From positions 1-37,562 of IMG/VR virus record IMGVR_UViG_3300048074_000026: a DNA stretch of 37,562 nucleotides. One strand, written 5' to 3'. Below are positions 4,875 to 24,424 of the stretch, in pieces. A program made the translations under genes and the position numbers. Source of the DNA: a virus (lineage: Duplodnaviria > Caudoviricetes). The notes under the pieces were generated by a model, which was not told where the DNA came from, made no database searches, and saw only the letters and a list, made by a program, of their open reading frames with translations. Each line of letters starts with the position of its first letter. Position 1 is the first letter of the stretch.

Positions 4875-6632
4875 ATGCAAACGACGATTGTGCTCGACCT
4901 CCTGCACGACAACCCCTACCAGCCGCGCCTGGTGGACGACCCTGCGCACATCGAGGCGCTGGCGCGCAGCATTGCCGCCGATGGCCTCCAGCAGCTTCCC
5001 AAGGCGCGCAAGGTGGAAGTTTGGTATCAGCTGGCCTTCGGTCACAGCCGCCGCAAGGCCTTCGAGTGGCTGGCTGCCAACTACGAGGCTCAGGGCCTGG
5101 CCGACCGCTACGATGGTTATACCTGCATGCCCGTCGAGATCGAGGAGATGGACGAAGAGACCATGTACCGCCTGGCCGTGACCGAGAACGTCCAGCGCAA
5201 AGACCTGGACCCGATCGAGCAGGCCAAGTCGATGAAGGTCTACCGCGACCAGTTCGGCAAGACCTCGACGGAGATCGGCGCGCTGTTCGGCATGTCCGAC
5301 GCGACCGTGCGCGGAATGACCCGCCTGCTGGATCTGCACCCTGACGCGCAGGGTCTCTTGTCCAGGGGGATGATCAGCCAGGGGACGGCGCGCACGTTGC
5401 TGTCCGTGCAGAAGATCCTGGACGAAAAAGCGCTCAGGGGCCTCCTTGCCAAAATGGCGAATACGAGCGCCGACGACCACGAGCAACTCATCGAGAACAT
5501 CATCGAGCGCAGCGACAACACCTTCGAAATGTGGAGCCGATGGGACAGCGAGCGCGGCAACAAGGCTCGCGCGGGAAATGACCTGTGGCTGCTGGACATG
5601 AAGAACTTCCCAAACAAACTGCTGGCTGATATGAGCGTCGTCGAGGCGGCTGAGTTGATCGGCATCCAGAAGGATAAGGCCGACTATGAAATCCTCAAGA
5701 AGTGGATGATCGATTACGACCAGGGCACGGAAACCACCGAGGACGGCTGGAATGCATTGGAGTTCTCGGGCCTGCACCAGGAACATATCGACCGCCTGCG
5801 GCACCTGATCGACCCGCCCGCGTGCAATGCCTGCCCGTTCTACGCGGTGGTGAACAAGGCGCATTACTGCGGGGTGAAGATCTGCCGCCAGCGCAAGACC
5901 GAGGCTTTCAAGGCGCAGAAGCTGGCCGACATGAGCCGCACGTTGAAGATCGCGGTCTACCAGGAGAGCGACGGCGCGTACCTGCTGCTCGATGAGGACA
6001 TCGCGGCGCACAGGAAGGCTTTCGAGGCGCGTCACGCCGACCTGCGCCTGGTGCCCATCGCACTGATCAGGGGCTACGCGTATCAGCATTTCAAGGATGC
6101 CGACAGCTCCACCGCCAAGATCGTGGCGGTCGGGGAATCGGCCAGCAAGCTGGAGGTCAGCCCGCGCATGAAGACCAAGGGCGGCAAGAAATCTGAGAGC
6201 GAAAAGGCCGAGATGCGCGCCAAGCGTCTGTACCGCGCGCGGCGGCTGGAATTGACCTGGGAGTACACCGCCGAGGCGCAGGTCATCTTTGAGGGTGTGC
6301 CGCTCAAGGCTTTGCAGAGGGTGCGCGCGTGGCATTACGTGGGCGTCGTTGACGCTATCCCTGACGAATATAAGCATTCCGATACAGGGGCGGAAGACAG
6401 GCAGCTGGACTTTGCGCGCCGCGCCCTGGTTTGGGGGATGGTCGTCGAGAAGACGTCGTATTACGACCGCTCGAAGCTGGCCAAGGCCCTGGGGGATTTC
6501 GCGGCAGTGACAGGGGCGACGGCTTCGAAGGCGCTGACGGCGCGCGCCGCGGAGTGGGACGCCGAGATCGATGCACTGGCCAAGCCCGTTGCTGCGGAAA
6601 CGCCCGCGAAGAAAACCACCAAAAGGAGCTGA
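4875..6632 (+). CDS. ParB/Spo0J-family protein with long C-terminal extension
   Basis: NPYQPR, LARSIAADGLQQ, LAFGHSRRKA, ENVQRKDLDPIEQA and HTH. RBS AAAGGA before ATG 4875. Confidence 0.88.
   Translation: MQTTIVLDLLHDNPYQPRLVDDPAHIEALARSIAADGLQQLPKARKVEVWYQLAFGHSRRKAFEWLAANYEAQGLADRYDGYTCMPVEIEEMDEETMYRLAVTENVQRKDLDPIEQAKSMKVYRDQFGKTSTEIGALFGMSDATVRGMTRLLDLHPDAQGLLSRGMISQGTARTLLSVQKILDEKALRGLLAKMANTSADDHEQLIENIIERSDNTFEMWSRWDSERGNKARAGNDLWLLDMKNFPNKLLADMSVVEAAELIGIQKDKADYEILKKWMIDYDQGTETTEDGWNALEFSGLHQEHIDRLRHLIDPPACNACPFYAVVNKAHYCGVKICRQRKTEAFKAQKLADMSRTLKIAVYQESDGAYLLLDEDIAAHRKAFEARHADLRLVPIALIRGYAYQHFKDADSSTAKIVAVGESASKLEVSPRMKTKGGKKSESEKAEMRAKRLYRARRLELTWEYTAEAQVIFEGVPLKALQRVRAWHYVGVVDAIPDEYKHSDTGAEDRQLDFARRALVWGMVVEKTSYYDRSKLAKALGDFAAVTGATASKALTARAAEWDAEIDALAKPVAAETPAKKTTKRS
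6587..6602. promoter_or_regulatory. parS-like palindrome copy 2 (3' end of the parB-like gene)
   Basis: CGTTGC-TGCG-GAAACG. Confidence 0.65.
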
Positions 6633-8632: not shown

Positions 8633-9730
8633 ATGCAGCGCATCCTGATCGTTATCGCAATTGCACTGGCACTCACGGCGTGCGGGTCGGGCATATCCGA
8701 GCGCGAGGCCGCGATCGTGGCCACGGATGCGGCCCTGGGCACGCCTCCGCCCGCCGAGTATCAAACCGCCGCGGCGCTCTACCTGCACGTGACGCTGACG
8801 CCGACTCCCGCCCCGCCCACGGCCACGCAGGTGACTGTGCTCGATTACGCAGCCACGATGGCCGCCAACGAGATGCTGAGCCTGCTGACCAAGCAGGCGG
8901 GAGAGGCGGAAACCGAGCGCCTAAAGGTGGCTGAGGCGCAGGCCCAGGCCGCAGCGGAGCAGTCGCGGCTCAATGCCACGGCGCGCGCCGACTCGTTGAA
9001 TGCCACCATGACCGCCGACGCGCGCACCGCGCAGGCCGCGGTGGCCATGATGACCGCCCAGCGCTCCGACGATATGACACGCGCCGCAGTGGAGACCAAA
9101 GGCGCAATGACCGCCGTTGCTGTGGCAACGCACGGCGCAGAGACGCAGGCGGCGGCGATCACCACGGCCGAGTTCCAGCCGACCGCCAACATGTGGACGT
9201 CGACGGCCATCGCGCAGGAGATCGCCATCAAGCAGGGCCAGGTGGCAGACGTGGAGCTGGCGGTCGCCCGCCAGACGGCAAAAAACTACTTCGACGCCTT
9301 CCTGCCCTGGACGCTGACCATCGTGGCCGCGTACGTGCTGGGGCGAGGCTTCCAGACCTGGGTCAAGACCCGCACGCATCCGCGCGACGAGCACGGCCGC
9401 CCGCAGACCCTGCAACGCGAGCTGGCAGACGGGGGCGTGGTTTTTGTCAGGCCCGAGCAGATGGAGACTGGCATCGTCAAGGTCACGAGCGACGGGAGCG
9501 TGATCCGCTACGCGCCGATGGACAAGGGCGAGCAGTCGGACATCAACCGACGGGCGCAGATAACCGAGGCCATCGCGGCGCTGCCGATGCCGTACGCGCG
9601 CAACGCCCAGGGCATGATGCGCAGCGAGTTCACCGCGCAGGTTGGGGATCCGTCTGTGAACATTATGCAGGAGGCGCGCTCGCTGTCGCCTGTCCTGGAC
9701 GAGGCCGAAGGCAAGCTGGTGGAGGAATGA
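8633..9730 (+). CDS. Ala/Thr-rich lipoprotein with internal membrane helix
   Basis: MQRILIVIAIALALTAC lipobox, Ala/Thr-rich helical region, TM segment FLPWTLTIVAAYVLG. Confidence 0.8.
   Translation: MQRILIVIAIALALTACGSGISEREAAIVATDAALGTPPPAEYQTAAALYLHVTLTPTPAPPTATQVTVLDYAATMAANEMLSLLTKQAGEAETERLKVAEAQAQAAAEQSRLNATARADSLNATMTADARTAQAAVAMMTAQRSDDMTRAAVETKGAMTAVAVATHGAETQAAAITTAEFQPTANMWTSTAIAQEIAIKQGQVADVELAVARQTAKNYFDAFLPWTLTIVAAYVLGRGFQTWVKTRTHPRDEHGRPQTLQRELADGGVVFVRPEQMETGIVKVTSDGSVIRYAPMDKGEQSDINRRAQITEAIAALPMPYARNAQGMMRSEFTAQVGDPSVNIMQEARSLSPVLDEAEGKLVEE
9115..9130. promoter_or_regulatory. parS-like palindrome copy 3
   Basis: CGTTGC-TGTG-GCAACG. Confidence 0.55.
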
Positions 9731-11127
9731 TGAACCTGCAACGATATTCGAAACATGCCACACTGACCGCCCGCGTGATCCAGCGGGTAATGATCAACGA
9801 CCTGCGCCTGGTTCCGCCCGCCTCCTACACCCTGACCGAGCACAACGGGAACGTGTGGCTGGTGGCCGCAATGGACACGCTTTCGCTGGGTGGAAAACTG
9901 GAACCGTACGAACACCCGAACGTGGCGCACCAACTCTCGACCGCCCTGTCTGCGGCCTTTGGCACGCGGACGTCCATTCCCGTCATCACGGCCAACCACA
10001 CAGGCCTGCGCTATTGCGTTCTGTTCGGGACAAAGCCCAGCCTGCCCCGCCGCGTGGATTTCCCTGGCTTTGGTGAGCGGGACATATTCCAGCTGGGTGT
10101 TGGGCTGCGCGGCGCGGTAAACATGCAGGCGCGGATGATGAAGAACGTGATCATCGGAGCGGCCCAGGAGCAGGGCAAGAGCAACATCCTGCGCCTGATC
10201 GCGCACCAGGCGCGGGCGTTCGGCTGGTCGTTGTACCTGGCCGACAGCCAGGCGCACACGTTCAACCCCGACGTGTGGGGCGGGATTGCCAGCCATCCCG
10301 TGGCGACATCGGTCGATGATCTGCACAGGCTGTTGGCCACGCTGAGAGGCACGTTGGAAGATCGCTCAGCGCAGTATCGGGCCGCGGCGAATGGCGGCAT
10401 CCCGCCCGCGGACATCGACGCTTACAACCTGATCGCCACGCCCATGCCGCGCATCCTGCTGGCCATCGACGAGGCCTCGACGCCGCTCCAGGATAAGCGC
10501 ATCTTCCGCGAGATCGCTGCGCTGCTGCGCGAGGGCCGCAAGTGGGGCCTGCACATCGTCATGGCGGGGCACGAATGGCACAAAGAGGTCATCCCTGCCG
10601 AGGTGAACGACATGCTGCAAACCCGCATTGCCCTGCCCATGATCGACGAGGGCAGCGGCTACGTGGTGACACGTTCGCGCACCTGGGGCCGCTGGGTGAT
10701 CGGCAAGCCCGCTGGGCGGGGTGTGCTGCGCACCAACCAGTACACGCCGATGCAGTTCTACCTGGTGACGCCCGAGCAGGAGACGGAGTGGTTGTCGACC
10801 GTCGCGCCGACTTCTGCCTCCCCTTTGACAGACGGCGAAGCCGTGTTGGTGGCGCGCTCTGTAAGCGAGGTTGATGGGCGTATGTCCATCCCATTGCTGA
10901 AATCGTGGGGCATGGAAGAACGCGAAGCGCGCAACCTGGTCGAACGCTGGGAACTGCGCGGATGGCTTTTCAAGGATGCGCGGCAGGGTAATGCCCGCTG
11001 TGTAACGCCGAAATTGCTGGATTTGCTGTCAAGCCGTCAAACCTGTCAAACCGCGTCAAGCCCCCAAATGTGGTGTCAAACCGATGTCAAAGCCTCTCAA
11101 ACCCAAAATATGGAAGGAGCAGAATGA
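9727..11127 (+). CDS. FtsK/SpoIIIE (TraB-like) DNA translocase ATPase
   Basis: NVIIGAAQEQGKS (Walker A), ILLAIDE (Walker B), LLREGRKWGLHIVMAG, TRIAL, GRG. C-terminal wHTH-like segment. Confidence 0.85.
   Translation: MMNLQRYSKHATLTARVIQRVMINDLRLVPPASYTLTEHNGNVWLVAAMDTLSLGGKLEPYEHPNVAHQLSTALSAAFGTRTSIPVITANHTGLRYCVLFGTKPSLPRRVDFPGFGERDIFQLGVGLRGAVNMQARMMKNVIIGAAQEQGKSNILRLIAHQARAFGWSLYLADSQAHTFNPDVWGGIASHPVATSVDDLHRLLATLRGTLEDRSAQYRAAANGGIPPADIDAYNLIATPMPRILLAIDEASTPLQDKRIFREIAALLREGRKWGLHIVMAGHEWHKEVIPAEVNDMLQTRIALPMIDEGSGYVVTRSRTWGRWVIGKPAGRGVLRTNQYTPMQFYLVTPEQETEWLSTVAPTSASPLTDGEAVLVARSVSEVDGRMSIPLLKSWGMEEREARNLVERWELRGWLFKDARQGNARCVTPKLLDLLSSRQTCQTASSPQMWCQTDVKASQTQNMEGAE
11028..11103 (+). 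repeat. Cluster of 8-bp direct repeats GTCAARCC (clt/TRS-like)
   Basis: Exact copies at 11028, 11036, 11045, 11055, 11075. Variants at 11086 and 11096. All in the same orientation. Confidence 0.85.
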
Positions 11128-11372
11128 AAGCGCAGGATTATCTCACTTTGACGGCCGAAGCGCGCAAGGAGCAAAAGGCCTATTACGCAACCAGGGGCAA
11201 ATTCCCGATTGAGGCGCAGCAGCACCTGATGGCAGCGAAGGCGCTGGAGAAGCGCATGGACGCTGTCATCGCTGAGGGGAAGCTGGAGCCTGACGAGGTC
11301 ATCACGACCACGGCCAGCGCGGAAGAGCAGCGTCAACTGCGCCTGCACCTGGAACCAGAGCAGAACGATTAG
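11124..11372 (+). CDS. Hypothetical protein
   Basis: RBS AAGGAG, ATGA overlap, 82 aa. Confidence 0.65.
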   Translation: MKAQDYLTLTAEARKEQKAYYATRGKFPIEAQQHLMAAKALEKRMDAVIAEGKLEPDEVITTTASAEEQRQLRLHLEPEQND

Positions 11373-11382
11373 AGGAGCATCG

Positions 11383-12225
11383 ATGAAACGTATCACAAAC
11401 ACAAATCTTTTCTGGATCGTCTACGTGGCGTTCCTGGCCGTGCTGTGGCCTCAAGCCGCGTGGACAATCGGACAATTCCAGGACGCGGCAGGGATGCAGT
11501 GGTCGGTGTTCGGGGTGTCCGCCTCGCCGCTGGCCTGGGCGCTCTCGGGCGTGTTCGAGGCGACCATCGGCATCGTGACACATCGCCTCAACGAGCATTG
11601 GCAGGAGATGCCGAAGCGGTTCAAGGCCGACGACATGCGCAAGAAGCGGATCGCGTATCGCTGGGGCAATGCCTATGCAGTGGCGCTGGTCATGGCGATG
11701 GTGGTCTCGGCGGTGGCGAATTACACGCACGTCGTCCAGTTCACCAACGCTACGCTGGCTGTGTTCGACGGCGCCGAATGGGCTATTCGGCTGTACCAGG
11801 TGCTGTTCGGTCTGGCTCTGCCTGGCATTTCGTTCGTATTCGCCCGCGTTCTGTCCACCATGCAGGATGCCGAACAGGAGGACGACCCAGCATTCGCCAA
11901 GGCGAAAGCCGACCTTGCGGAAGCGAAAACCACTATTCGGGAAAAGGATGCCGCTATTCGGCAGGCGAATGAGGCTGTTCGGGATGCCGAACGACGACTG
12001 AATGAGAGCGAACAGCGGTATCGGGCGGTTGGTGACGTCGTTCGGTTTCTGTTCGGCACGGATTTGGCCCTGCGAGATCGGATTCGGGGCGTCCGAACGA
12101 GTTGGCCGAACCTGTCTCAGAACGGAATTGCGCAGGTGCTGGGCTGCTCGGTAAGCACCGTCAACGAGGCCTTGCAGGGTTACGTGATCGAGATGCCGCA
12201 GATGGTTGAGAGCGAGACTGTATGA
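11383..12225 (+). CDS. Multi-TM, coiled-coil, C-terminal HTH protein (Spd/DUF2637-like architecture)
   Basis: Four hydrophobic segments, heptad region AKAKADLAEAK...RRLNESEQR, HTH LSQNGIAQVLGCSVSTVNEAL. Confidence 0.7.
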   Translation: MKRITNTNLFWIVYVAFLAVLWPQAAWTIGQFQDAAGMQWSVFGVSASPLAWALSGVFEATIGIVTHRLNEHWQEMPKRFKADDMRKKRIAYRWGNAYAVALVMAMVVSAVANYTHVVQFTNATLAVFDGAEWAIRLYQVLFGLALPGISFVFARVLSTMQDAEQEDDPAFAKAKADLAEAKTTIREKDAAIRQANEAVRDAERRLNESEQRYRAVGDVVRFLFGTDLALRDRIRGVRTSWPNLSQNGIAQVLGCSVSTVNEALQGYVIEMPQMVESETV

Positions 12226-12974
12226 GCACGCTCGTGATGGGTTTGGTCTGGGAACTGCCAGAGGTGCCAGAGTTCGGGCGTCCTGAGAAGTACGTGCTGC
12301 TGGCCTATGCCGACCATGCCGACAGCAACGGCCGAAACGTCTATCCGTCCATTGACCTGATCATGCGCAAAACGTTCTACGAGGAGCGGGCTGTGCAGGT
12401 CATCACGCGCAAGCTGGAGAAAGCTGGATTTCTTGTTCCTGACGGCGTTGGGCCGCGTGGGACGAACCGCTGGCTGATCCCTGTGGCGCGCACAAATGAG
12501 GGGGGTGCAAAAATTGCACCCGTGCAAAATGCAGAATCAAAAAATGCACCCGAAGGGAATGCACCCGAAGGGAATGCACCCGAACCATCAGTAGTAGTTA
12601 ATAAAGATGAGAGATTCGGGAAAATTGCAAACGCGCTTGCGACCGCCACAGGCGGAGGCCTGGGAGCCAACTCCGCGGACATGATCGATGCCTGGATGAG
12701 CGTTCACACGGACGAGTGGATTCTCAAGGCCATCGAGATGGCGAAGGCGAAGCGGGCGCGTTCCGCGAATTATGTCGACTCCATCCTGATCGGGTGGGAG
12801 GCGAACGGATATCCACAAACACGAGACCAGAAGGTCGAAGGAGCGAAACATGCAAACAGCAAGACAGGTAATTCCAGCCGCATCCCAGCGCAGACTTATC
12901 CCGTCCCAACCGATGCCGACCGCGCCGCGGCCGAGCGTGTCAAAGCCCGCCGACAACATGGCCGTGTGTCCTGA
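12222..12974 (+). CDS. Replication initiator (N-terminal wHTH, DnaD-like C-terminus)
   Basis: KYVLLAYADHADSNGRNVYPSI and ILKAIEMA...SANYVDSILIGW. Internal iterons. Followed by a DnaC-like gene. Confidence 0.85.
   Translation: MSTLVMGLVWELPEVPEFGRPEKYVLLAYADHADSNGRNVYPSIDLIMRKTFYEERAVQVITRKLEKAGFLVPDGVGPRGTNRWLIPVARTNEGGAKIAPVQNAESKNAPEGNAPEGNAPEPSVVVNKDERFGKIANALATATGGGLGANSADMIDAWMSVHTDEWILKAIEMAKAKRARSANYVDSILIGWEANGYPQTRDQKVEGAKHANSKTGNSSRIPAQTYPVPTDADRAAAERVKARRQHGRVS
12504..12584. repeat. Iterons, putative replication origin inside the initiator gene
   Basis: GGTGCAAAAATTGCACC inverted repeat, then three AATGCACCCGAA direct repeats at 15-nt spacing. Confidence 0.75.
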
Positions 12975-13638
12975 GTGTGGCGGCGCCCGTCAGGTACGCT
13001 ACGACGTGCCTTTTGGTGATCCGCGTTTCGGCAAGCTGTTCGCGTGCCCTGCCTGTAACTCGGACGCGTTGATCGTGTCCGCTGGCCTGAACGAAGCCGA
13101 GCGCAGCATCCGCCTCGACCAGATCGAGACTGACGGACGGGCGGGCGCGGCCGCCATGCTGAGCGCGTCCAGGGCGTGGATCGCTGGCGGGCGTGTAGGC
13201 TGGCTGTCTGTCCACGGCGGGTATGGATGTGGCAAGTCGACGCTGCTCAAGGCCATCGTCAACGAGTGCATCGCGCACCACGTCGAGGCGCGGTACGTGA
13301 GCATGATCCAGGTCATGGCGTACGCGAAAGAGGCGTTTGCGTCTGGCAGCAGCGAGCCTGGAGACAGTGATTTCTCGCGCATTGCGAAACTGGCGCGCGT
13401 GCAGGTGCTGGTGATCGACGAGGTCGACAAGGCACGTCAGACCGAATACGCGCGTGAGATACAAACGCATCTGTTCGAGGCACGGTACCGCGAGATCGGC
13501 CGCCTGGGGACGGTGCTGGCCTGGAATGGTGATTTCGCTGCGCTGGACCTGCCCTGGGTGCGGTCGCGGTGCAGCGAGGGGATTGTCGTACACAATCAGG
13601 ACGCCGACATGCGTCCGCTATTGGGAGAGCAGGCATGA
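12958..13638 (+). CDS. DnaC/IstB-like AAA+ helicase loader
   Basis: CPEC...CPAC zinc motif, GGYGCGKST Walker A, VLVIDE Walker B. Confidence 0.88.
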   Translation: MAVCPECGGARQVRYDVPFGDPRFGKLFACPACNSDALIVSAGLNEAERSIRLDQIETDGRAGAAAMLSASRAWIAGGRVGWLSVHGGYGCGKSTLLKAIVNECIAHHVEARYVSMIQVMAYAKEAFASGSSEPGDSDFSRIAKLARVQVLVIDEVDKARQTEYAREIQTHLFEARYREIGRLGTVLAWNGDFAALDLPWVRSRCSEGIVVHNQDADMRPLLGEQA

Positions 13639-13856
13639 ATATTTTGCACAACATCGATGACGTCCGCGCGGAGGTCATGGCGCTGGAATACGCGGAGTAT
13701 TTTGACCAGTCCGCGTGGGATCGGGTGCTGGGTGCGCTGGTAGACCGACCGTGCGCGCTGGCCGACGCCATGCGCAGAATGGACACGGCCAGCAGGAATC
13801 AGCCCGTGTGGGTGCCGATAATCGTTTCCGCGGAAACGGTGGAGGTGATGGCATGA
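13635..13856 (+). CDS. Hypothetical protein
   Basis: GGAGAG RBS, ATGA overlaps at both ends. Confidence 0.65.
   Translation: MNILHNIDDVRAEVMALEYAEYFDQSAWDRVLGALVDRPCALADAMRRMDTASRNQPVWVPIIVSAETVEVMA
13823..13838. promoter_or_regulatory. parS-like palindrome copy 4 (perfect)
   Basis: CGTTTC-CGCG-GAAACG. Confidence 0.7.
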
Positions 13857-14752
13857 ATATGCGCGGCACAACAGACGCGCCTGCCAAGTTTAGGCCTAAT
13901 TTGTCCATGACCGTCCTGCGCCGACAGTTATATCAGCGCAGGCAGATCGACGTGTCCATTCACAACCTGGCGTGCTCCATGTTCAAGGTCACGACCGAGG
14001 TCAAGTTTAGGATCGGCGTCCGCGAGTATTTCGGCGCAGTCAGTGAAGTTGTCGGAGAGCCAGGCAGCACGCGGGTGCGCGTCGTCAACCTGGCGACTGG
14101 CAAGGAGCGCGATCTGGCGCTCATCGAATCATCGGGATTGTACAGGAGGCATAGCATGCTTGCATCAGACATCCAAAAACGGATCATGGGATTTATCTAT
14201 GCTCGGAGCGGGTTCGAGCCGCGTCGTCAGTACGTGGGCATGAGCCACATTGCAGACTGTCCGCGCAGGCTGGCCGAGGACATGCGCAAGGGTCAGGCCG
14301 CCGACGACGAGCGTCACCGCATGGCGTTCCTCGGGTACAGCATCGAGCAGATCGAGCGCGACATCCTGATGAGCACGGGCATTATGCGCGCGGCGGGACG
14401 CGAGATCGTCGCCGAGTTCGATGAGCGCGTCCGCGGGCATGTCGACGGGGAGACCGTCGACGGCGACCTGATCGAGATCAAGTCGGTCAGCGTGCTGCGG
14501 TTCGAGAAAGTGCTGGCCGAGGGACGTGCGCTGCGCGCACACTTCGAGCAGGTGCAGGCCTACATGCACTTTGGCGGATACAGGCATGCCGAGATTGTGT
14601 ACGTTTGCCGAGACGATTTCAGGCACAAGGTGATCCACGCCGCGTATAACATGGGCGTGGGCGAGAGGCTCGAAGCCAAGGCGCGCGCGCTGCTGGCTGC
14701 GCTGGACGCGAACGTTAAGCCAAAGTGCGAGTGTGGGCGATGCCAAGCATAA
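13853..14752 (+). CDS. Cas4-like/PD-(D/E)XK exonuclease (domain from about 14156) with N-terminal extra domain
   Basis: SHIADCPR, GHVDG, LIEIKS, QVQAY, C-terminal CECGRC. Internal AGGAGG RBS with in-frame ATG at 14156. Confidence 0.75.
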   Translation: MNMRGTTDAPAKFRPNLSMTVLRRQLYQRRQIDVSIHNLACSMFKVTTEVKFRIGVREYFGAVSEVVGEPGSTRVRVVNLATGKERDLALIESSGLYRRHSMLASDIQKRIMGFIYARSGFEPRRQYVGMSHIADCPRRLAEDMRKGQAADDERHRMAFLGYSIEQIERDILMSTGIMRAAGREIVAEFDERVRGHVDGETVDGDLIEIKSVSVLRFEKVLAEGRALRAHFEQVQAYMHFGGYRHAEIVYVCRDDFRHKVIHAAYNMGVGERLEAKARALLAALDANVKPKCECGRCQA

Positions 14753-16239: not shown

Positions 16240-16701
16240 ATGCCAACTAACGTTGTCGCAGCTGCGACCATGCAGGTCGGAAAAAAGGGCGGGGGGAAGC
16301 ACCACACCAAGGCGGAGGTGGAGGCTCGGCAGAAGGCGGCCGAGGCGTTCGAGCGGACTGAGCCTGCGCCGATCATCAGGCCGCCGCTGTGGCTGTCTAA
16401 GGGTGCTAAGAAGATTTGGAAAAAGAAAATTGCAGAAATCGCCGGGTTGAAAGGCGGCGCAGATCTACTGGATGCGCTCGATGGCGAGATGCTGGCGGTT
16501 TATTGCGATGCGGTATGGAAATACATGCAACTCTCCAACCTGGACGAGCCGTCGCTGGACGATCACAAGATGCTGGCCAGCTACATGAGCAAGATGCTCC
16601 AGTACGCGGACCGTCTCGGGTTCACGCCAGGCTCGCGCGCGCGGTTGATCAAGAAACGCGCGGAAGCGAACGATGATCCGTTTGGGATGAAATACGACTG
16701 A
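16240..16701 (+). CDS. terS: Terminase small subunit (P27-like)
   Basis: PPLWLSKGAKKIW, LAVYCDA, LGFTPGSRARL motifs. Confidence 0.9.
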   Translation: MPTNVVAAATMQVGKKGGGKHHTKAEVEARQKAAEAFERTEPAPIIRPPLWLSKGAKKIWKKKIAEIAGLKGGADLLDALDGEMLAVYCDAVWKYMQLSNLDEPSLDDHKMLASYMSKMLQYADRLGFTPGSRARLIKKRAEANDDPFGMKYD

Positions 16702-18599
16702 TGACAACTTTCCACCCTGCCACCCGCTATGCGTTGGATGCTGTGCTGCAAAAAATAACCGTTGGTCGGTTCGAGCGGCTGGCCTGTTTGCGGCATCTGT
16801 ATGACCTGGCGCGGGCGGGACAGCTCCCGCCGAAGGTTCGGCAGCGCGTCGAGGCGGCGACGGAGATGCCAGTGCCAGCGCATGACCCCAATTTTCCGTG
16901 GATGTACGACGGGGAGCAGGCGTCGTTTGTGGCCATCGAGTGGTTTGCGCACCTGGTCCACGTGGAGGGGGAGTTCGCAGGCAAGCCCATCGAGTTGATC
17001 CCTGCGCACGTGTTCGACCTGTCGATGATCTTCGGATGGGTATCCCGCGCGGAGCAGATCACGCGCACGAACGGACGCGCGGTGGGGGTGCGCAGGTTCA
17101 ACATGGCGTTCATCACCGAGGGCCGCAAGAATGCCAAGACGACGCGCGGCGCGGGCATCGGCCTGTACATGATGATCGGCGACATGGAGGTGGGTCCGTC
17201 GGTGTATTGCACGGCGTACGACAAAAAGCAGGCGGGCGTGCTCTATAACTACTCGCGGCGGATGGCTGAACTTAGCAGGGACATGCGCGCGCGGCTCAAG
17301 ATCGGCGAGTATCGGCTGGTACATCGCACGCGCGGCGGGGAGATGGTGGCGTTTTCGGGCGAGGTCAAGAACAAGGACTCGTTCAACCCGAGCTGTGCGT
17401 TCATCGACGAGTACCACGCGCACCCGACGTCGAAGCTGTTTGACCTGATGGTGACCGCGCAGGGACAGCGGCAGCAGCCGTTGATCCTGACCATCACCAC
17501 GGCGGGCGATGATACCGAAAGTCCCTGCTACAAGGAGTACGAATATTGCAGGATGATCGTGGAGGGTTCGGTTAGCCCGCAGCCAGGCGCGACGCACAAC
17601 GAGCATTATTTCGTGATGATCCGCCAGATGGACGAGAACGACGACGAGCACGATCCCTCGAACTGGGTCAAGAGCAACCCGCTGCGCTGTGCCAACGTCA
17701 AAGGCATCGCCAGGTTGAAACAACAGCACGACACGGCGTTCGACTCTGGTATCCAAAGCAAAATCAGGTCGTTTCGCGTCAAGAACCTAAACATCTGGGT
17801 GCATGGAGATGCGGATAACTCGTACCTGGGCGAGTGGATGGCTGGGGAGGGGGCGAAGCTGTCAAAATGGGATCAGATGGGGGTGGGGCGGGATGAGTTC
17901 CAACGTCTGACCGCGGACGGGCTGTGCCTGGTGGGCGTCGATATGTCCAAGCGCATCGACCTGACGGCACTGGCGTTCGTGTTCGCGCTGCCCGATGGAC
18001 GCGTCGCGGTTTCGGCGCATGGGTTTATTCCATCGCAGGCCGTAAATCAGCACGAGAAAACAGACAAAATCCCCTACCGCGTTTGGGCGGAGGCGGGCTG
18101 GCTGACGATCACGGATGGGGCGGTGACAGATTACGCCAGGCTGGAGGAGATGATCCTGCTGCGCGACGGACGCTGGGCGGACGCGGGACTGCTGGAGGCT
18201 GAGTACCTGGCGCGCATCGAGGCGGATTATCACGGCTGGCACGTGCATGAAATTTGTTATGACCCCTATGAGGCGACCAGCTTCAAGAACAACATGGACG
18301 CGCGCGGATATACGACGGTTGAGGTGCGGCAGATCATGGCCAACATGAACGAACCCACCAAAACATTCCAGGAGCTAGTCGCGGACGGCAAGATCGTGCA
18401 TGACGGTTCGCCGCTGCTGCGCTGGTGCGCGGGGAATGCGCGTTTCATGGTCAACAGCAAGGAAAACATGATGATCACCAAGAAAAACCAGAACGACACG
18501 CGCCGCATCGACCTGCTCGCAGCGACGCTCAACGCCATGAAACGGTACCAGGCGCTGCAGAGCCAGGCCGCCGTAGATCCAAACGACATCGGAGTTTGA
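16701..18599 (+). CDS. terL: Terminase large subunit
   Basis: GRKNAKTT Walker A, FIDEYH Walker B, ITTAG, GVDMSKRIDLTA nuclease motif, RIDLLAA. Confidence 0.96.
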   Translation: MTTFHPATRYALDAVLQKITVGRFERLACLRHLYDLARAGQLPPKVRQRVEAATEMPVPAHDPNFPWMYDGEQASFVAIEWFAHLVHVEGEFAGKPIELIPAHVFDLSMIFGWVSRAEQITRTNGRAVGVRRFNMAFITEGRKNAKTTRGAGIGLYMMIGDMEVGPSVYCTAYDKKQAGVLYNYSRRMAELSRDMRARLKIGEYRLVHRTRGGEMVAFSGEVKNKDSFNPSCAFIDEYHAHPTSKLFDLMVTAQGQRQQPLILTITTAGDDTESPCYKEYEYCRMIVEGSVSPQPGATHNEHYFVMIRQMDENDDEHDPSNWVKSNPLRCANVKGIARLKQQHDTAFDSGIQSKIRSFRVKNLNIWVHGDADNSYLGEWMAGEGAKLSKWDQMGVGRDEFQRLTADGLCLVGVDMSKRIDLTALAFVFALPDGRVAVSAHGFIPSQAVNQHEKTDKIPYRVWAEAGWLTITDGAVTDYARLEEMILLRDGRWADAGLLEAEYLARIEADYHGWHVHEICYDPYEATSFKNNMDARGYTTVEVRQIMANMNEPTKTFQELVADGKIVHDGSPLLRWCAGNARFMVNSKENMMITKKNQNDTRRIDLLAATLNAMKRYQALQSQAAVDPNDIGV

Positions 18600-18600
18600 C

Positions 18601-18933
18601 ATGAACCGAAGCAAATCACGTCTGAAATCAAACGAGCGGGCCGCCCTGCGCGAGATGGGCAGGGATGTGCTGGCTTTGCGCTACGACTGGCATAGGCGTC
18701 TGCGCAATGCGCTGCTGGCGCTGGCCATGATGGACCCGGGCTGGATGGCCTGGGCCGAGGCAGATATCGACGAGCAGCGTATGAGCGTGCAGGCCATTAC
18801 ACGTTTGGTGGAGGGACGCGCGGGAGCTTGCGTTTTGAAACATCACCAATGGCTCGGACGGGCGCGAGCTGGCGCTTTGCTATTCGACAACGGTTTTATG
18901 TTTAATGATCGCGGCGATATGATGCAGGTGTGA
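18601..18933 (+). CDS. Hypothetical protein
   Basis: 110-aa ORF directly after terL, GGAG RBS. Confidence 0.6.
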   Translation: MNRSKSRLKSNERAALREMGRDVLALRYDWHRRLRNALLALAMMDPGWMAWAEADIDEQRMSVQAITRLVEGRAGACVLKHHQWLGRARAGALLFDNGFMFNDRGDMMQV

Positions 18934-18940
18934 GAGGCAA

Positions 18941-18968
18941 TTGACATCATGCGGAAAATGAATATAAT
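18941..18968 (+). promoter_or_regulatory. Consensus sigma70-type promoter for intI
   Basis: TTGACA (18941-18946), 16 nt, TATAAT (18963-18968). Confidence 0.8.
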
Positions 18969-18975
18969 CAATGTA

Positions 18976-19110
18976 TCTCACAGAAACAAAGCGGTTATGT
19001 TTTTTAATCGAATATCTTCGATGGTAAACCACCGTCAATCAGCACCGCTTGTTTCTGTGAGAAGTTTCAAGTCGCTGGTTGGCGGTGTTTTGCGTCGAAA
19101 GGTGTTGACG
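18976..19110 (+). promoter_or_regulatory. Structured 5' leader of intI (two interleaved stems)
   Basis: Stem 18976-18995/19044-19062 and stem 19031-19043/19074-19086. A small hairpin surrounds the RBS. Confidence 0.6.
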
Positions 19111-20100
19111 ATGGCAGATAAAAAGTTACTTGAACAACTGGCTGATGTGATACGGATGAAGCATTACAGCCTCAAGACGGTCGAAGCTTACGTGAATTGG
19201 AATAAGCAATTCATCCTTTTTCATGGCAAGCGGCATCCGCGTGAGATGGGGCTGGAGGAGATTAAGGCTTTTTTGTCTCACCTGGCGAACGTTCGGCGAG
19301 TGTCTGGATCGACGCAGAACCAGGCTTATTACTCAATCCGTTTTATGTATTTGCATGTCCTCAACATGCAGATCGCTGGGATCGATGAGCTGGCGGCAAA
19401 AGCGGCGAAGCATCTCCCGATTGTTTTGACGCTGGAGGAAACCGCCAAGGTGTTGGAGAACATCGAAGGCGAACCGTTCAGCTTGATGGCGCATCTGTTG
19501 TATGGCGCTGGGCTGAGGCTGAAAGAGTGCCAGCAGTTGCGCTTTAAAGACATAGAATTTTCCAGCGGGATTATTGTGGTCAGGGGCGGGAAGGGGGACA
19601 AGGATCGGACTGTGCCGCTGCCCAGAAAGCTGGTCAAGCCGCTGATGGATCAGATGGCAATAGCGCGCCGATTGCATGAGATCGATGTGCAGCGTGGAAT
19701 GCCTGGCGTGCAGGTGCCTGGGGCGCTGGATGTCAAATATAAAAACATTGGGTGTGAGCTTGGTTGGTTCTGGGTTTTCCCTGCGCAGGGGTACAGTGTA
19801 GACCCTGAAAGCGGGATTAGACGACGGCATCACCAACACGAGAGTGAGCTGCAGAGGGCTATTCGCGCGGGTGCGAAACGGGCGGGTGTGCTGAAGCACG
19901 TCACGCCGCACACGTTTCGGCATTGTTTTGCGACGCATCTTCTGTGGGGTGGGTATGATGTGCGCACTGTTCAGGATTTGATGGGGCATCAAAGCATAAA
20001 GACAACGATGATATATCTGCACATTTTGCAGCCTGCTGGCTGGAAAGGCGTGCAAAGTCCGCTGGATAATAATCCTGTGGAGAGTCTTATCTGTCGGTAG
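19111..20100 (+). CDS. intI: Integron integrase (IntI family), about 329 aa
   Basis: IRMKHYSLKTVEAY, FHGKRHP, VSGSTQNQA, LLYGAGLR, GGKGDKDR. Integron-specific insertion LDVKY...WFWVFP...DPESGIRRRHH. HTFRHCFATHLL, LMGH, TTMIY. Confidence 0.95.
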   Translation: MADKKLLEQLADVIRMKHYSLKTVEAYVNWNKQFILFHGKRHPREMGLEEIKAFLSHLANVRRVSGSTQNQAYYSIRFMYLHVLNMQIAGIDELAAKAAKHLPIVLTLEETAKVLENIEGEPFSLMAHLLYGAGLRLKECQQLRFKDIEFSSGIIVVRGGKGDKDRTVPLPRKLVKPLMDQMAIARRLHEIDVQRGMPGVQVPGALDVKYKNIGCELGWFWVFPAQGYSVDPESGIRRRHHQHESELQRAIRAGAKRAGVLKHVTPHTFRHCFATHLLWGGYDVRTVQDLMGHQSIKTTMIYLHILQPAGWKGVQSPLDNNPVESLICR

Positions 20101-20120
20101 ATGGATAAGGATAGTTGGCA
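20101..20120 (+). other. attI: attI-like primary recombination site (left cassette junction, G|TT at 20114/20115)
   Basis: GGATAAGGATAG|TTGGCA immediately after the intI stop. GTTGGCACGCT is the exact reverse complement of the attC inverse core region at 20768-20778. Confidence 0.75.
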
Positions 20121-20152
20121 CGCTCCCTTGCAAACGAGTTTCCTTCCAACCC

Positions 20153-20181
20153 TTGACAGCGTTACAGTAACGCGGTAAGAT
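20153..20181 (+). promoter_or_regulatory. Cassette-internal promoter with operator palindrome
   Basis: TTGACA (20153-20158), 17 nt, TAAGAT (20176-20181). The spacer holds GCGTTAC-A-GTAACGC (20159-20173). Confidence 0.8.
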
Positions 20182-20207
20182 TAGGTCAATCAAACAAGGA
20201 GATTGAC

Positions 20208-20432
20208 ATGAACAAAATCGAACTCGAAACTGGTTTCTCTGAATTTCACGGCAAAGGCATCATCTGGTGCGGCAAGGATACCAAGAAGGTTTCTCTTGAA
20301 AACCTGCTTCATCACATTGACCTGTTCCGCATTGAGTTCACCGACTCAATCCCAGCGGTTGAAGATGGCAAGGTTATCGGTCACGCTCGCAAGGTGATCG
20401 GCGGCAAGGCTTGGGTTATTTATGTCCAGTAA
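20208..20432 (+). CDS. Cassette ORF1, hypothetical (74 aa)
   Basis: RBS AAGGAG. No recognised family. Confidence 0.75.
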   Translation: MNKIELETGFSEFHGKGIIWCGKDTKKVSLENLLHHIDLFRIEFTDSIPAVEDGKVIGHARKVIGGKAWVIYVQ

Positions 20433-20631
20433 ATCAGTGCGAGTTTTCAATCTAGCAACAGGTGAGGAGCGCATGTACTGGTGCGCTCCATTCACCGCTG
20501 TTGTTTGTGCGTATGCTCAGTCTATGCACAAAGATTTCAACACGTGGATGTATGCAAAGTATTTTCCTCTCGTAGATTACACCCGTCACACATATCTGCT
20601 TGGTGATTGGAGCGTGCTACATGGTCAATAA
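20422..20631 (+). CDS. Cassette ORF2, hypothetical (69 aa)
   Basis: Overlaps the ORF1 end. Aromatic-rich. No recognised family. Confidence 0.7.
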   Translation: MSSKSVRVFNLATGEERMYWCAPFTAVVCAYAQSMHKDFNTWMYAKYFPLVDYTRHTYLLGDWSVLHGQ

Positions 20632-20863
20632 AGATAAAACTGGTAGTGATCGTCAATCCCGCTTGCGTGCGTCTCGCGTGAAGTGGCTTGCTGAAAATGC
20701 TTATGGCTTATCGGCAGAAGGTCTAATTGGTGCGCTCATGCGTGGCGAGTGTTCTCTGTCATGGTCAAGCGTGCCAACATCGCGTGCACTGGACGGGGCG
20801 AAGCGCACGGCTCAAAAAGGTTCTATTAGTGGCAAGCGTTCTGGTAGGTCGCCCCGCCAGTAA
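20621..20863 (+). CDS. Cassette ORF3, small basic protein, possible autorepressor (80 aa)
   Basis: GGAG RBS. TGSDRQSRLRASR basic helix. Reads through most of attC and stops in the L' box. Confidence 0.6.
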   Translation: MVNKDKTGSDRQSRLRASRVKWLAENAYGLSAEGLIGALMRGECSLSWSSVPTSRALDGAKRTAQKGSISGKRSGRSPRQ

Positions 20864-20878
20864 CGCAAACCGTTATAG
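20772..20878 (+). other. attC: attC site (107 bp)
   Basis: R'' TGCCAAC and R' GTTATAG. Arms GCGTGCACTGGACGGGGCGA (20782-20801) and TCGCCCCGCCAGTAACGC (20849-20866) pair with two extra bases, C and A (G and T extrahelical on the bottom strand). Confidence 0.9.
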
Positions 20879-20888
20879 AAATTGCCCC

Positions 20889-21053
20889 TTGCAAAAAATA
20901 GAAAATATATGCTACACTAACGACGTGGTTGGGCGACGTGCCCCCCTCACGCCGCCCGCCACAGCCTTATAATCTGAGTCGCCCGCTCTCGTGCGGACAA
21001 AGTTGGAGATGAACGCCCAACAGTCAATTTTGACTGTTGGGCGGTTTTTGTTT
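20889..21053 (+). promoter_or_regulatory. Late leader 2: promoter, CCGCTCTCGTGCGG hairpin, intrinsic terminator
   Basis: TTGCAA (20889), 18 nt, TACACT (20913) with a TGn extension. TTATAA at 20967, hairpin 20983-20996, stem 21014-21043 followed by GTTTTTGTTT. Confidence 0.7.
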
Positions 21054-21060
21054 AACTATC

Positions 21061-21219
21061 ATGCTAAAAACCTTTGCGAAGTACCTCGACGATGTTGCAA
21101 TGATCCTGGGCTGTGTCTGCCTCGTGTATGGCGTCAGCCTGGTCTATGTGCCCGCCGCCTGGATAACTATGGGAATCCTGCTGGTGACTGGCGCCTTTAT
21201 GTACGGGAGGTCCGCGTGA
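21061..21219 (+). CDS. Small membrane protein preceding the portal
   Basis: 52 aa with two hydrophobic helices. Such genes are common before HK97-family portals. Confidence 0.7.
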   Translation: MLKTFAKYLDDVAMILGCVCLVYGVSLVYVPAAWITMGILLVTGAFMYGRSA

Positions 21220-22418
21220 TCGTCGGGAAAATCGCCAAGTCGTTTCGCAACACGGCCACCAGCATGACGCTGTCGCAGTTGGTCGACGGGCTGGGCGCTA
21301 CCAGCTCGGGAGAGGTCGTCACGCCCGACAGCGCCAAAAGCATCGACATTGTTTATCGCGCGGGCAACATCCTGAGCGATGACGTAGCCAAGCTGCCGTT
21401 CCAGCAGATCCAGCGCGTGGGGCGCAGCATCGAGCAGGTCAAGCCTGACGCGTTCCTGCGCAATAACGCCTACCTGCTGGAAGTCACTCCCAACGAGTGG
21501 GGCTGGACGCCGTTCCTGTTCAAAAAGCAGATCATCCTCTGGCAGTTCCACCACGGAAACGCTTATATCTGGTCGCCACCCGTCTGGCCGCCTCAAAAAC
21601 TGATCCTGCCCGCGGACCGTACCAAACCCGTGTTTGATACGGCGGGCAATCTGTGGTATCGGCATACGTTCACCAACGGTCAGACCGAGTACATCCCAGG
21701 CGTGGAGATCCTGCAACTGCTGATCAACCCTGACGAGACAGGCATGGAGGGGCGCGGAGTGATCCAGTACGCGCGCGAGACCATCGGCCGCCAGCTGGCC
21801 GCGTTCAAGACGCAGGGCAAATTTTACGCGCAGGGCCTCAACCCGTCCGCGTACATCACCGTCAACTCTCCGCTGGATGCGACAGGCCGCGCGAAATATC
21901 GGGACTCGTACGGCGAGGCCATGAGCGGCACAAATAACGCCTATCGGCTGGCCGTGTTCGACAGCAAGATCACCAGCTTTCAACCCATCACCATGAAACC
22001 CGCCGATGCCGAGTTCCTGGAAAGCATCGACGCGAACGATGTGCGCCTGGCCACCTTCTGCGGCATCCCGCTGCACATGCTCAACCGCGGCAAGGAAGCC
22101 TACAACTCGAACGAGCAAAAATACATCGAGTATTTGCAGGGCTCGCTGGACGCGTACCTGGTGCCGTTTGAGCAGGGCGCGCGCATCCGCTGGCTGCGGC
22201 AGGACGAGCAGGCCACAAACTATTTCAGGTTCGTGCGCGAGGCTTTGCTCCGCATGGACGCAAAGGGGCGCGCCGAAACCAACGAGATCCGCATCCGCAG
22301 CGGGCAGATGACGCCCAACGAAGCCCGCGAAAAGGACGACGTCAGCGCCTATCCTGGCGGGGATAAATTTTACATGACCAGCAACTACACACCGATCAAC
22401 GGAGATCAAAATGCCTAA
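21216..22418 (+). CDS. Portal protein, HK97 family
   Basis: GGGAGG RBS with GTG at 21216. ILSDDVAKLP, HGNAY, GIPLHML, GQMTPNEAR motifs. Confidence 0.95.
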   Translation: MIVGKIAKSFRNTATSMTLSQLVDGLGATSSGEVVTPDSAKSIDIVYRAGNILSDDVAKLPFQQIQRVGRSIEQVKPDAFLRNNAYLLEVTPNEWGWTPFLFKKQIILWQFHHGNAYIWSPPVWPPQKLILPADRTKPVFDTAGNLWYRHTFTNGQTEYIPGVEILQLLINPDETGMEGRGVIQYARETIGRQLAAFKTQGKFYAQGLNPSAYITVNSPLDATGRAKYRDSYGEAMSGTNNAYRLAVFDSKITSFQPITMKPADAEFLESIDANDVRLATFCGIPLHMLNRGKEAYNSNEQKYIEYLQGSLDAYLVPFEQGARIRWLRQDEQATNYFRFVREALLRMDAKGRAETNEIRIRSGQMTPNEAREKDDVSAYPGGDKFYMTSNYTPINGDQNA

Positions 22419-23172
22419 TCAGCCCATCCGCGTGTTCGAGGGCAATGCCCAACCGTTCGAGCCGTTTTGGACGTTCCGCAACGCGGCCCAGTCTGAAAGC
22501 GGCGAGACCGAGGTCGAGCTGTACGGCCCGATCTCCGAGTTTTCCTGGTTTGATGACGAGGTCACACCGAAAAAGTTCAAAGACCAGTTGTATGCCAACG
22601 GCCATGCGCCTGTGACGGTGCGTCTGAACAGCTACGGCGGCGACCTGATCGCGGCCTCGGTTATCGCGGCCATGCTGCGCGACTATCCAGGCAAAACCAC
22701 GGTCAAGATCGACGGCGTGGCGGCCTCGGCGGCCGTGATGGTGGCCCTGGCGGGTGACAGGATCAAAATCCAGGCCAGCGCCTACATGATGATCCATAAC
22801 CCGATGGTGGGCATCCTCGGGTATTTCGGCGTGGATGAACTCAAGGGGCTGGTCGACGAGCTGAAATCGATCAAGAGCGGCATCGTCGAGGGCTACACCG
22901 CCCGCACGAAACTCGACTCGCTCAAGCTCTCGAAGATGATGGACGACGAAACCTGGATGACCGCCAGCGAGGCCATTGCCAACGGGTTCGCCGACGAGAT
23001 CGTCAGCGGATCGTCCAAGGCCAGTTACGTCAACCTGGCCAGCATGCAAGCCAAATTTGTGAATATCCCGCGCGCGCTGTTGGAACCCCAGCAACCCGCG
23101 GGTAACGAAACCGAGCGCCGCGCGCAGCGTCTGGCCGCTCAAGCCCGATCATACCTAATCAAGGAGAAATAG
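22411..23172 (+). CDS. Prohead protease, ClpP-like
   Basis: LNSYGGD, IDGVAASAA, MMIHNP, ETWMTASEA...GFAD. Confidence 0.95.
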   Translation: MPNQPIRVFEGNAQPFEPFWTFRNAAQSESGETEVELYGPISEFSWFDDEVTPKKFKDQLYANGHAPVTVRLNSYGGDLIAASVIAAMLRDYPGKTTVKIDGVAASAAVMVALAGDRIKIQASAYMMIHNPMVGILGYFGVDELKGLVDELKSIKSGIVEGYTARTKLDSLKLSKMMDDETWMTASEAIANGFADEIVSGSSKASYVNLASMQAKFVNIPRALLEPQQPAGNETERRAQRLAAQARSYLIKEK

Positions 23173-23173
23173 C

Positions 23174-24424
23174 ATGACCATCAAAAATCTGTACGACCGT
23201 GTCATGAAGGCGAACGCTGAGCGCAACCGCATCGCGTCGGATGTCGTCCGCCTGAACGACGAAGGCAAGTACGACGAGGCGCTCGCTCTTCAGGGGAGCC
23301 TCGACGCCGCCAACAGCGAGTACGACCAGTCCAACAAGTTGTACTTGTCCACCCTGGCCGCCACCAGCGACACCCCCAGCCCCCAGCAGCGCTTCGCGCC
23401 GATGGGCAACCAGGAACCGCGCGAGGTCAAGGCCCTGCGCGAGACCAGGGAATACGCCGATCAGTGGTTCGAGGCCTTCCGCGCTGGCGTGAGCCCGAAG
23501 AACCTGCACGCCAACGGCGGCGCACAGCGTTTCCCGCTGTTGATCAATGCCCTCACCGAAACGGGCGGCTCGCCCGCGGGTGAGGATGGCGGTTTCCTGA
23601 ACCCTGTCGAGTTCGACAACAAAATCCGCGAGCTGATGCGCGCGTATGTCGACCTGGGCAACTATGTCAGCATCGAGGACGTCAACACCTACTCGGGCTG
23701 GCGCGTGATCGAACAGTTCGCGGCTTCGAGCGGGCTGACCGAGACCACCACCGAGTTGACCGTCAAGGCCGATGGCGACGAGGGCGAATCGCCCAAGTTC
23801 AACAAGATCGAGTACGCCCTGCGCGAGTTCTCGGACTTCCTGCGCGTGGGTAACTCCCTGATGCAGGACACGCCCGTCAACATCATGGCCTACCTGAGCC
23901 GCTGGTTCGCCAAAAAGCTTGTGCTCACGCACAACAGCCTGGTGCTGACCAAGTTCAACGCCATCACGGGCACCGCCGTCAGCGACTACAAGACCACATT
24001 GAGCGCGATCAAGACCGTGCTCAACAAGACCCTCGATCCCGCGTTCTCCGCCTCGGCCATCATCGCCACCAACCAGAGCGGACTGGATGTGCTCGACCAG
24101 CTTGAGGACGGCACGGGCCGCCCGCTGCTCCAGCCCGATCCCAGCAGCCCGACCGCGTTCCGCGTGAAGGGCCGTCCCGTGGTCTACCTCTCGGATGCCC
24201 ACTGGGCCAACATGACAGGCCCCGCCCGCGCCCGCATCGCCATCGGCGACGCCCGCGAGTTCGTGGCCCTGTTCCGCCGCTCGGGCCTGGAGTTTGCCTC
24301 GACCAACATCGGCGGCAGCGCCTGGCGCTCGAACAGCACCGAGGTGCGCGGCATTGCCCGCCTCGACTGCGAAACCCTCGACAGCGACGCGCTGACCGTT
24401 CTCAAGGTCACCCTGCCGTCGTAA
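23174..24424 (+). CDS. Major capsid protein, HK97 fold
   Basis: N-terminal coiled-coil delta domain, DGGFLNP, LDQLEDGTGRPL, IAIGD. Position after the protease. Confidence 0.95.
   Translation: MTIKNLYDRVMKANAERNRIASDVVRLNDEGKYDEALALQGSLDAANSEYDQSNKLYLSTLAATSDTPSPQQRFAPMGNQEPREVKALRETREYADQWFEAFRAGVSPKNLHANGGAQRFPLLINALTETGGSPAGEDGGFLNPVEFDNKIRELMRAYVDLGNYVSIEDVNTYSGWRVIEQFAASSGLTETTTELTVKADGDEGESPKFNKIEYALREFSDFLRVGNSLMQDTPVNIMAYLSRWFAKKLVLTHNSLVLTKFNAITGTAVSDYKTTLSAIKTVLNKTLDPAFSASAIIATNQSGLDVLDQLEDGTGRPLLQPDPSSPTAFRVKGRPVVYLSDAHWANMTGPARARIAIGDAREFVALFRRSGLEFASTNIGGSAWRSNSTEVRGIARLDCETLDSDALTVLKVTLPS

Follow-up and report, generated by a model that had tools for sequence, protein, structure and literature searches.

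A reverse integron with an apparently intact integrase in a temperate phage genome, and its phage-associated relatives

The virus record IMGVR_UViG_3300048074_000026 (Duplodnaviria; Caudoviricetes), analysed here over its full 37,562 nucleotides (the window), carries on its plus strand an integron comprising a gene for an integrase (intI), a recombination site called attI, a gene cassette and an attC site. An earlier note, made from the letters alone, had described a complete integron embedded in a phage genome between terminase and portal; its account of the parts stands, and what it missed is the reverse layout of the element and the existence of a wider phage clade of related integrases, which we gathered by scans of viral, metagenome and genome collections. 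Judged by its sequence features, the integron in the window is real and intact, and it is probably active.

The integrase gene probably starts with the ATG at 19111 and ends at 20100 (plus strand), giving an intact protein of 329 aa, the same length as most of its homologs. The product (19132-20100) scores 383.8 bits on TIGR02249 (cut-off 265), falls under the XerC and XerD cut-offs and clusters with integron integrases in the tree, which counts against the possibility, raised by the earlier note against itself, that the protein is Xer-like. Residues R136, K161, H267, R270, H293 and Y302, read from ATG 19111, are all found, and we take their catalytic role to be that of their counterparts in IntI1. 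The integron-specific WFWVFP insertion is kept across the IntI alignment A1, and the catalytic positions are without variation in 44 aligned integrases of the phage clade. A consensus sigma70-type promoter lies 5' of intI as first described (18941..18968, plus strand; TTGACA-16-TATAAT, 12/12 match) and could also read through into the cassettes.

The attC site (20772..20878, plus strand, 107 bp) has its R'' box at 20772-20778, L'' at 20784-20791, L' at 20858-20864 and R' at 20872-20878, with two extrahelical bases, C20787 and A20793 of the top strand, which read G and T on the bottom strand. It was the top match of a geometry scan, scoring 19.5 against a maximum of 16.4 among 12 shuffles of the window; applied to other arrays, it picks up three sites in the class 1 case (16.2-20) and only one each in those of Vibrio and Shewanella. 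A covariance model built for this analysis, distinct from that of IntegronFinder and trained on 34 attCs from outside the clade, returned the site with exact ends at 22.3 bits (E=0.0019) as its sole match below E 0.7, a result that is not fully independent because the training sites were chosen by the geometry scan. The folding energy of the whole attC was discarded as evidence, being not significant (z=-1.58, with 16 of 200 shuffles folding equally well). The 758-bp cassette (20114..20871, plus strand) has a guanine-plus-cytosine (GC) content of 0.49 compared with 0.60 for the genome, and its first seven bases complement its own R''; as the earlier note had stated, 20114-20124 is an exact 11-bp reverse complement of 20768-20778. 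The core site 14 nt after the intI stop, the cassette and attC lengths and the two extrahelical bases were likewise all present. Separately, contigs from the sequencing runs X5 and X9 carry an identical 29 foreign bases before 20760 that resemble the end of a repeat from a clustered regularly interspaced short palindromic repeat (CRISPR) array, and a host spacer may target the start of attC; this 29-nt end had no match in 401 genomes of the phylum.

The attI site (20065..20120, plus strand) overlaps the 3' end of intI, with its crossover between G20114, 14 nt past the stop, and T20115. Its boxes GATAA (20065), TTAT (20087) and GATA (20104) are invariant in 22 of 22 aligned members, and two of the three fall inside the coding tail of intI. 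With attI directly after the intI stop and the cassette downstream on the same strand, the element is a reverse (inverted-integrase) integron and does not have the canonical divergent layout, in which attI lies at the 5' side of intI. This arrangement recurs: the motif GATAAGGATAG followed by TT lies just past the stop in 47 of 52 clade loci (three have variants and two lie at a contig edge), and all 74 matches of the attC model in 44 loci are on the plus strand, with no match in nine related terL loci without intI. Sites near non-clade integrases, by contrast, were upstream and on the opposite strand in 32 of 32 cases. No separate strong cassette promoter (Pc) was found, a weak 9/12 site at 20041-20070 being at chance level, and the intI promoter is co-oriented with the cassette. 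The 13-nt attI motif was tried as a marker in 401 genomes and dropped as uninformative, since it occurred in 50 of them, equal to the reversed control; a longer attI pattern gave 61 loci in viral contigs, 12 of them holding IntI, one of which was new. A distant host IntI in canonical orientation likewise has, on its upstream side, an attI-like motif resembling that of the phages (G225:C790:5453-5465, L280), which may be there by chance. In one clade member, L003, positions 11000-13600 hold irregular attC-like sites, very long or degenerate hairpins followed by repeated short GC-rich ones, which the geometry scan and the covariance model mostly missed.

The ends of the record carry a 426-bp terminal repeat, 98.8% identical, which indicates that the genome is circular, with a length of about 37.1 kb. 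Among its genes are those for replication, HNH, terS, terL, an HK97-type portal, protease, capsid and tail, and also a tyrosine integrase gene that spans the circular join and is, as proposed, separate from intI; the phage is temperate. Because the closest IntI relatives with a name bear the label Anaerolineales, and Chloroflexota metagenome-assembled genomes (MAGs) contain six related loci, four of the six with direct homologs of window phage genes, the host is likely to be an Anaerolineae bacterium. The runs containing this stretch are mostly bioreactor metagenomes; those with a minor part of it, and RNA runs, contribute no evidence here. No transposase catalytic family was detected among the 61 open reading frames (ORFs) of the window, in which one sub-threshold zinc-ribbon match lies distant from the integron, and terminal inverted repeats and a target duplication are absent, the longest repeat common to both flanks being 8 bp; as in the earlier note, no transposase or insertion sequence ends are seen. 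No tRNA genes were found in the window.

Repeats of the attC type are a known cause of misassembly, the window is metagenomic and no single contig spans the whole region, all of which would suit an assembly chimera of a phage and a host integron. We regard such a chimera as extremely improbable. A second assembly, L001, is 99.5% identical over 9,259 nt, although possibly from the same sampling campaign; X5 contigs span 18061-19652, 19636-20648 and 20760-23500, and an X6 contig spans 20111-20794, so that the joins are covered; and dozens of contigs, prophages in MAGs and a GenBank virus record have the same layout. A break in an X6 unitig at attI was considered as a branch and set aside as a coverage gap, the overlap being only 9 nt.

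The window integrase belongs to a branch that placed 30 of 30 selected rows on one side with a Shimodaira–Hasegawa-like approximate likelihood ratio test (SH-aLRT) value of 99 in a quick IQ-TREE analysis of 77 rows, and that was recovered by FastTree on 126 rows with support 0.998. Rooting is unreliable because the two Xer-like outgroups are very long-branched and one falls inside the ingroup. Members of the clade are 50-97% identical, yet remain in phage contexts: 26 of the 27 distinct members with informative flanks adjoin phage structural or replication genes or lie in a GenBank virus. Sixteen of these are beside terminase, portal or tail genes or in the GenBank virus (window/L001, L002, L003, L004/L006, L005, L020, L021, L022, L024/L052, L027, L028, L032, L048, L068, L172 and L161/L091), and ten are beside phage replication, ParB or FtsK modules (L019, L030, L031, L067, L076, L078, L081, L083/L084, L088 and L094); the flanks of L023 have weaker phage-type matches. 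Among 60 further flank ORFs there was no clear housekeeping gene, a SIS domain and a radical SAM gene being ambiguous. As found here, the IntI lineage appears to be phage-associated, adjoining only phage-type genes.

The position of the integron within phage genomes varies. Relatives with the terL-intI order that the earlier note proposed to look for exist, intI lying after terL in the window, L003, L021, L028 and L068, with terL identities of 24-52%, whereas the closest integrases are located before HNH-terS (L002) or after replication genes (L019). In the window the integron does lie between terminase and portal, with a 110-aa gene intervening on the terminase side. The terminase-portal interval is only one of several slots used. 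Among 50,697 GenBank phages, nine records have an IntI match. One of the nine, the clade member KX853513.1 (virus Rctr41k, L161:4680-10101), has its IntI annotated as xerD and contains a complete, previously unrecognised reverse integron with six attCs and cassettes; this virus comes from a bioreactor viral metagenome, and the passages searched in the source paper (PMC5099504) do not mention an integron.

IntI scored over the cut-off in 111 of 401 Anaerolineae-class genomes (the unpublished genomes G351 and G394 are counted in denominators only), and a subset of the 111 supplied 63 loci for comparison, some overlapping, totalling 452 kb. Host integrases are 31-54% identical to those of the phages where measured, those included in trees fall outside the clade, and host arrays have the canonical orientation. 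Barring distant methyltransferases and attC-translation artefacts, no close counterpart of 132 phage cassette genes was present in the 63 host loci, and the gene family of c3, the last gene of the window cassette, was not found in the 401 genomes, for which a positive control was run. The phage attC type also occurs in some Anaerolineae arrays, and one phage site matches a repeat of a host array at 92% identity; of the 80 phage attCs, only 2 come to 80% identity or more with a host site, the window attC standing at 59%. By sequence, phage and host sites look compatible and might permit cassette traffic; MAGs often break at arrays. One host array (L235:14263-16670, G224) has several near-identical 86-bp attCs about 180 bp apart, probably delimiting cassettes without genes.

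Conceivably, a fragment of a chromosomal host integron entered the phage recently and by chance, in the manner reported for Vibrio anguillarum phages, and is carried as passive cargo. The lower GC content of the integron region (0.49-0.53 against 0.60) would fit such a history, as would the commonness of host integrons, some with the same attC type, and the captured-integron precedent in PMC9892861. The divergence and canonical arrays of the host integrases examined, the lack of host genes flanking the unit, the breadth of the clade within phage contexts and the presence of different arrays in otherwise identical phages largely contradict it, and we consider chance capture very improbable.

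Near-identical phages differ at the crossover sites. L024 equals L052 plus one 287-bp cassette, inserted from the attI G/TT to the attC G/TT (the slash marking the crossover); upstream the two do not differ, over 9.7 kb downstream their identity is 99.8%, and each form is present in three contigs. In the pairs L004/L006, L033/L032 and L091/L161 the sequences agree to 99.97% or better as far as G/TT and then have different first cassettes. Four near-identical phage pairs therefore diverge exactly at the attI crossover; in a fifth pair, L028/L060, the first cassette is the same. Of the 85 cassettes in 31 arrays, 68 open with bases exactly complementary to their own R'', the pattern predicted if circles were integrated, and one 2.1-kb cassette is 87% identical in L003 and L005, which elsewhere have only intI and that cassette's promoter in common. 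The suggestion of the earlier note that the integron serves as an accessory-gene slot gains from these pairs and from the occurrence of a cassette family in unrelated backbones, whereas its companion suggestion of exchange with host arrays finds no support in shared cargo. In the L024/L052 phages a second, non-IntI tyrosine recombinase lies directly after the array (L052:11619-12488).

The same junctions could have been made differently if the platform resides in phages and its cassettes are turned over mainly by a host IntI acting in trans, or if the phage serves chiefly to carry host cassettes from one chromosomal array to another. The frequency of IntI in host-class genomes makes a supply in trans plausible, the 92% identical attC and the recombination of phage attCs by a foreign IntI1, as far as described in PMC9892861, are in keeping with it, and L162 and L163 are c3-related loci with attC and with no intI in the retrieved DNA. 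We nevertheless judge this unlikely, given that the catalytic positions are invariant in the 44 phage-clade integrases and attI is clade-specific, that the 63 host loci share no cargo and c3 was not found in the host-class genomes, and that so few phage attCs approach a host site.

The window cassette contains three small genes, all on the plus strand. The first, c1 (20208..20432, 74 aa), has three homologs and no match in Pfam, PHROGs, NCBIfam, PADLOC or Atlas. The second, c2 (20422..20631, 69 aa), is a widespread small alpha/beta protein with 175 homolog clusters and an AlphaFold2 predicted local distance difference test (pLDDT) score of 93; its best fold matches are uncharacterised phage proteins, its homolog alignment is too variable for a locus scan, and no function emerged from Pfam on 112 homologs, from PDB sequences or from Foldseek against PDB. 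The third, c3 (20621..20863, 80 aa), a predicted autorepressor, runs through attC and ends on the TAA of the L' box; its 58 homologs share a conserved core and vary in the attC-encoded tail, and its model is a two-helix pair of low confidence (pLDDT 66) with no recognised helix-turn-helix (HTH). None of the three matches known anti-CRISPR (Acr) or anti-CRISPR-associated (Aca) families or PADLOC, and none has a PDB fold match.

The cassette has its own promoter (20153..20181, plus strand), with a palindrome of 7-bp arms (20159-20173) between the -35 and -10 elements that is predicted to be an operator. In 2.65 Mb of retrieved DNA, five distinct loci (window, L068, L161, L163 and L166) have the exact palindrome upstream of a c3-family gene, and it occurs also in L079, where the contig ends about 190 nt later; c3 loci without it are L162 and L165, which have little upstream DNA, and L164, with a near match 5.4 kb upstream. 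Because the palindrome co-occurs with c3-family genes, we infer that c3 is the autorepressor of a small operon with varying upstream genes, and the window cassette is probably a self-repressing three-gene operon. Palindromes of their own also accompany two further terminal-gene families, in one of which weak HTH_3 matches fall short of the Pfam cut-off or barely exceed it. Cassettes of the c3 type with attC were seen in phage contigs whose retrieved DNA lacks intI (L162:474-732 and L163:5450-6548), one of them just before terL.

DNA methyltransferases of several types account for 16 of the 132 cassette ORFs, and further cargo includes a PAPS-reductase/DUF3440 and ParB pair, a phage VG64 protein, and HTH and zinc-ribbon proteins. 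No toxin-antitoxin, restriction nuclease or resistance families were detected among the 132, of which 27 proteins were also compared with PADLOC. Since most cassette ORFs have no family, the counter-defence role is an extrapolation that starts from the methyltransferases and a single weak match of the Acb2/Tad1 type. The latter, a hairpin match in L024:3636-3830 (cassette also in L052; E 1.5e-5, below the Pfam cut-off), marks a candidate signal-sponge anti-defence protein. Genes read into attC at 63 of 80 phage sites compared with 10 of 50 host sites (p=4e-11), and 37 of the 63 read-through genes stop on the L' TAA; a single reading frame at R'' was not seen, the frames splitting 33/17/13. A DnaJ-domain cassette gene was examined as a converted core phage gene and rejected, 28-30% identity over about 50 aa being too weak.

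Taken together, we think it highly probable that a temperate phage carries an intact reverse integron, of a clade seen here in phage contexts only, and likely uses it to insert, excise and reorder cassettes. Several observations weigh against this. Neither the empty junction nor a circular cassette, for which the earlier note had proposed read mapping, was seen for this phage in four runs; a host IntI in trans would be able to yield the same junctions; the crossover in L003 is G/TA; and 17 of the 85 cassette cores are mismatched, although some of these probably reflect missed attCs. The IQ-TREE analysis was a quick search without bootstrap and included no published reverse-integron IntI, the search of a viral collection contributes to the association with phages, many clade contigs are too short to judge, and most cassette ORFs have no family or a weak match.

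If the phage does run the integron, established integron biochemistry would have IntI recombine the folded bottom-strand attC of a circular cassette with double-stranded attI, and recombination of attC with attC (or attI) would give excision. Co-orientation would allow intI to be expressed along with the first cassettes, either by phage transcription or from the intI promoter, and use of attC as coding sequence would make the cassettes compact. The orphan methyltransferases, small proteins and self-repressing mini-operons may mainly serve the phage against host restriction and defences, and ordinary phage mosaic recombination has likely carried the intI-attI unit from one phage backbone to another. 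On a further reading, the lineage would be fully domesticated by Chloroflexota phages as a diversifier of counter-defence genes, with intI-attI as a 1-kb module built into phage operons and a phage-private cassette pool that passes among unrelated phages and consists of phage-type genes joined to host-type attCs, the attCs serving in turn as coding sequence; to our minds the case for and against this is evenly balanced. If true, this would mirror bacterial integrons as anti-phage banks, the arrays would yield new anti-defence genes directly, and cassette creation would have a visible case.

The neighbourhood of the integron is otherwise that of a phage. On the left lies the terminase large subunit (16701..18599, plus strand; Pfam TerL_ATPase and TerL_nuclease, phrog_9), followed by the 110-aa phage gene (18601..18933, plus strand), which is outside the integron and whose homologs are also found directly after terL in related phages without intI (L008-L010, L012 and L015). 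The intI leader (18976..19087, plus strand) has two mutually exclusive predicted hairpins, one terminator-like, with terminator-like matches at 19071-19087, and is possibly an attenuator; by blastn the hairpins are not conserved in related loci. No Rfam match reached the gathering score in the window, and none was credible in 18880-21100. A LexA box of the GAAC-N4-GTTC type, a motif possibly different from that of the host, was not found in 18701-19140. To the right, a 13-bp terminator-like hairpin (21014..21043, plus strand) precedes membrane and portal genes, and a 60-aa phrog_502 gene (21037-21219) precedes the HK97-type portal (21216..22418, plus strand). A conserved promoter-like, GC-rich leader segment lies before the membrane and portal genes at 20905-20963 in the window, L020:16591-16650 and L012:3876-3913, and in the window is followed by the strong terminator-like hairpin. 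The early region encodes a Cas4-like exonuclease (13715-14752), a long ParB-domain protein (4734-6632) and an FtsK-like gene (9193-11127), of which the ParB and FtsK genes recur across many phages with this integron.

Integrons are seen as belonging to bacteria, of late as stocks of anti-phage systems, and those published from phages mostly have the look of segments taken from hosts; an IntI clade resident in phages, with natural pairs of filled and empty attI, suggests that phages operate this machinery to their own benefit. A bounded list of about 100 small uncharacterised genes, which could be screened for anti-defence activity, comes from the arrays; the compact attI in the intI tail and the coding attCs are new substrates for integron biochemistry, and phage-type genes with host-type attCs bear on how cassettes arise.

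Acr-Aca operons have a strong promoter, a palindromic operator, small uncharacterised genes and a terminal small regulator. The window cassette resembles them in layout only, with no Acr or Aca family match and no recognised HTH in c3. Anaerolineae chromosomal integrons share with the phage element the IntI family and, in L248 and L233, an attC repeat family, but they differ in having a divergent layout and a separate branch in the tree, in genes that mostly stop before attC and in sharing no cargo in the examined loci. The reverse integron of Treponema denticola has a co-oriented intI as here, although the examples described in the parts consulted of PMC4909258 and PMC4889954 are chromosomal, together with one class 1 element; orientation gives no indication of kinship, because the inverted group is paraphyletic according to Cury et al.

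Phage integrons are already known from Qi et al. 2023 (PMC9892861), which, in the parts consulted, reports three complete integrons in 10,705 phage genomes (a Vibrio chromosomal piece, class 1 fragments on a P1 phage-plasmid and a cryptic Shewanella prophage) and proposes methyltransferase cassettes as anti-restriction cargo; its screen left out records marked "partial" and thus KX853513.1. A phage-resident clade of reverse IntI that has an attI of its own, pairs with filled and empty forms, and attCs used as coding sequence is not described in the literature searched, in which subscription journals are scarcely covered, nor in the portions consulted of PMC8618304 and PMC13323075. The present element resembles those of PMC9892861, as far as they are described there, in being a complete integron in a temperate phage with orphan DNA methyltransferase cassettes among its relatives, and differs from them in its separate IntI clade, its reverse layout, its own attI and the natural pairs of filled and empty forms.

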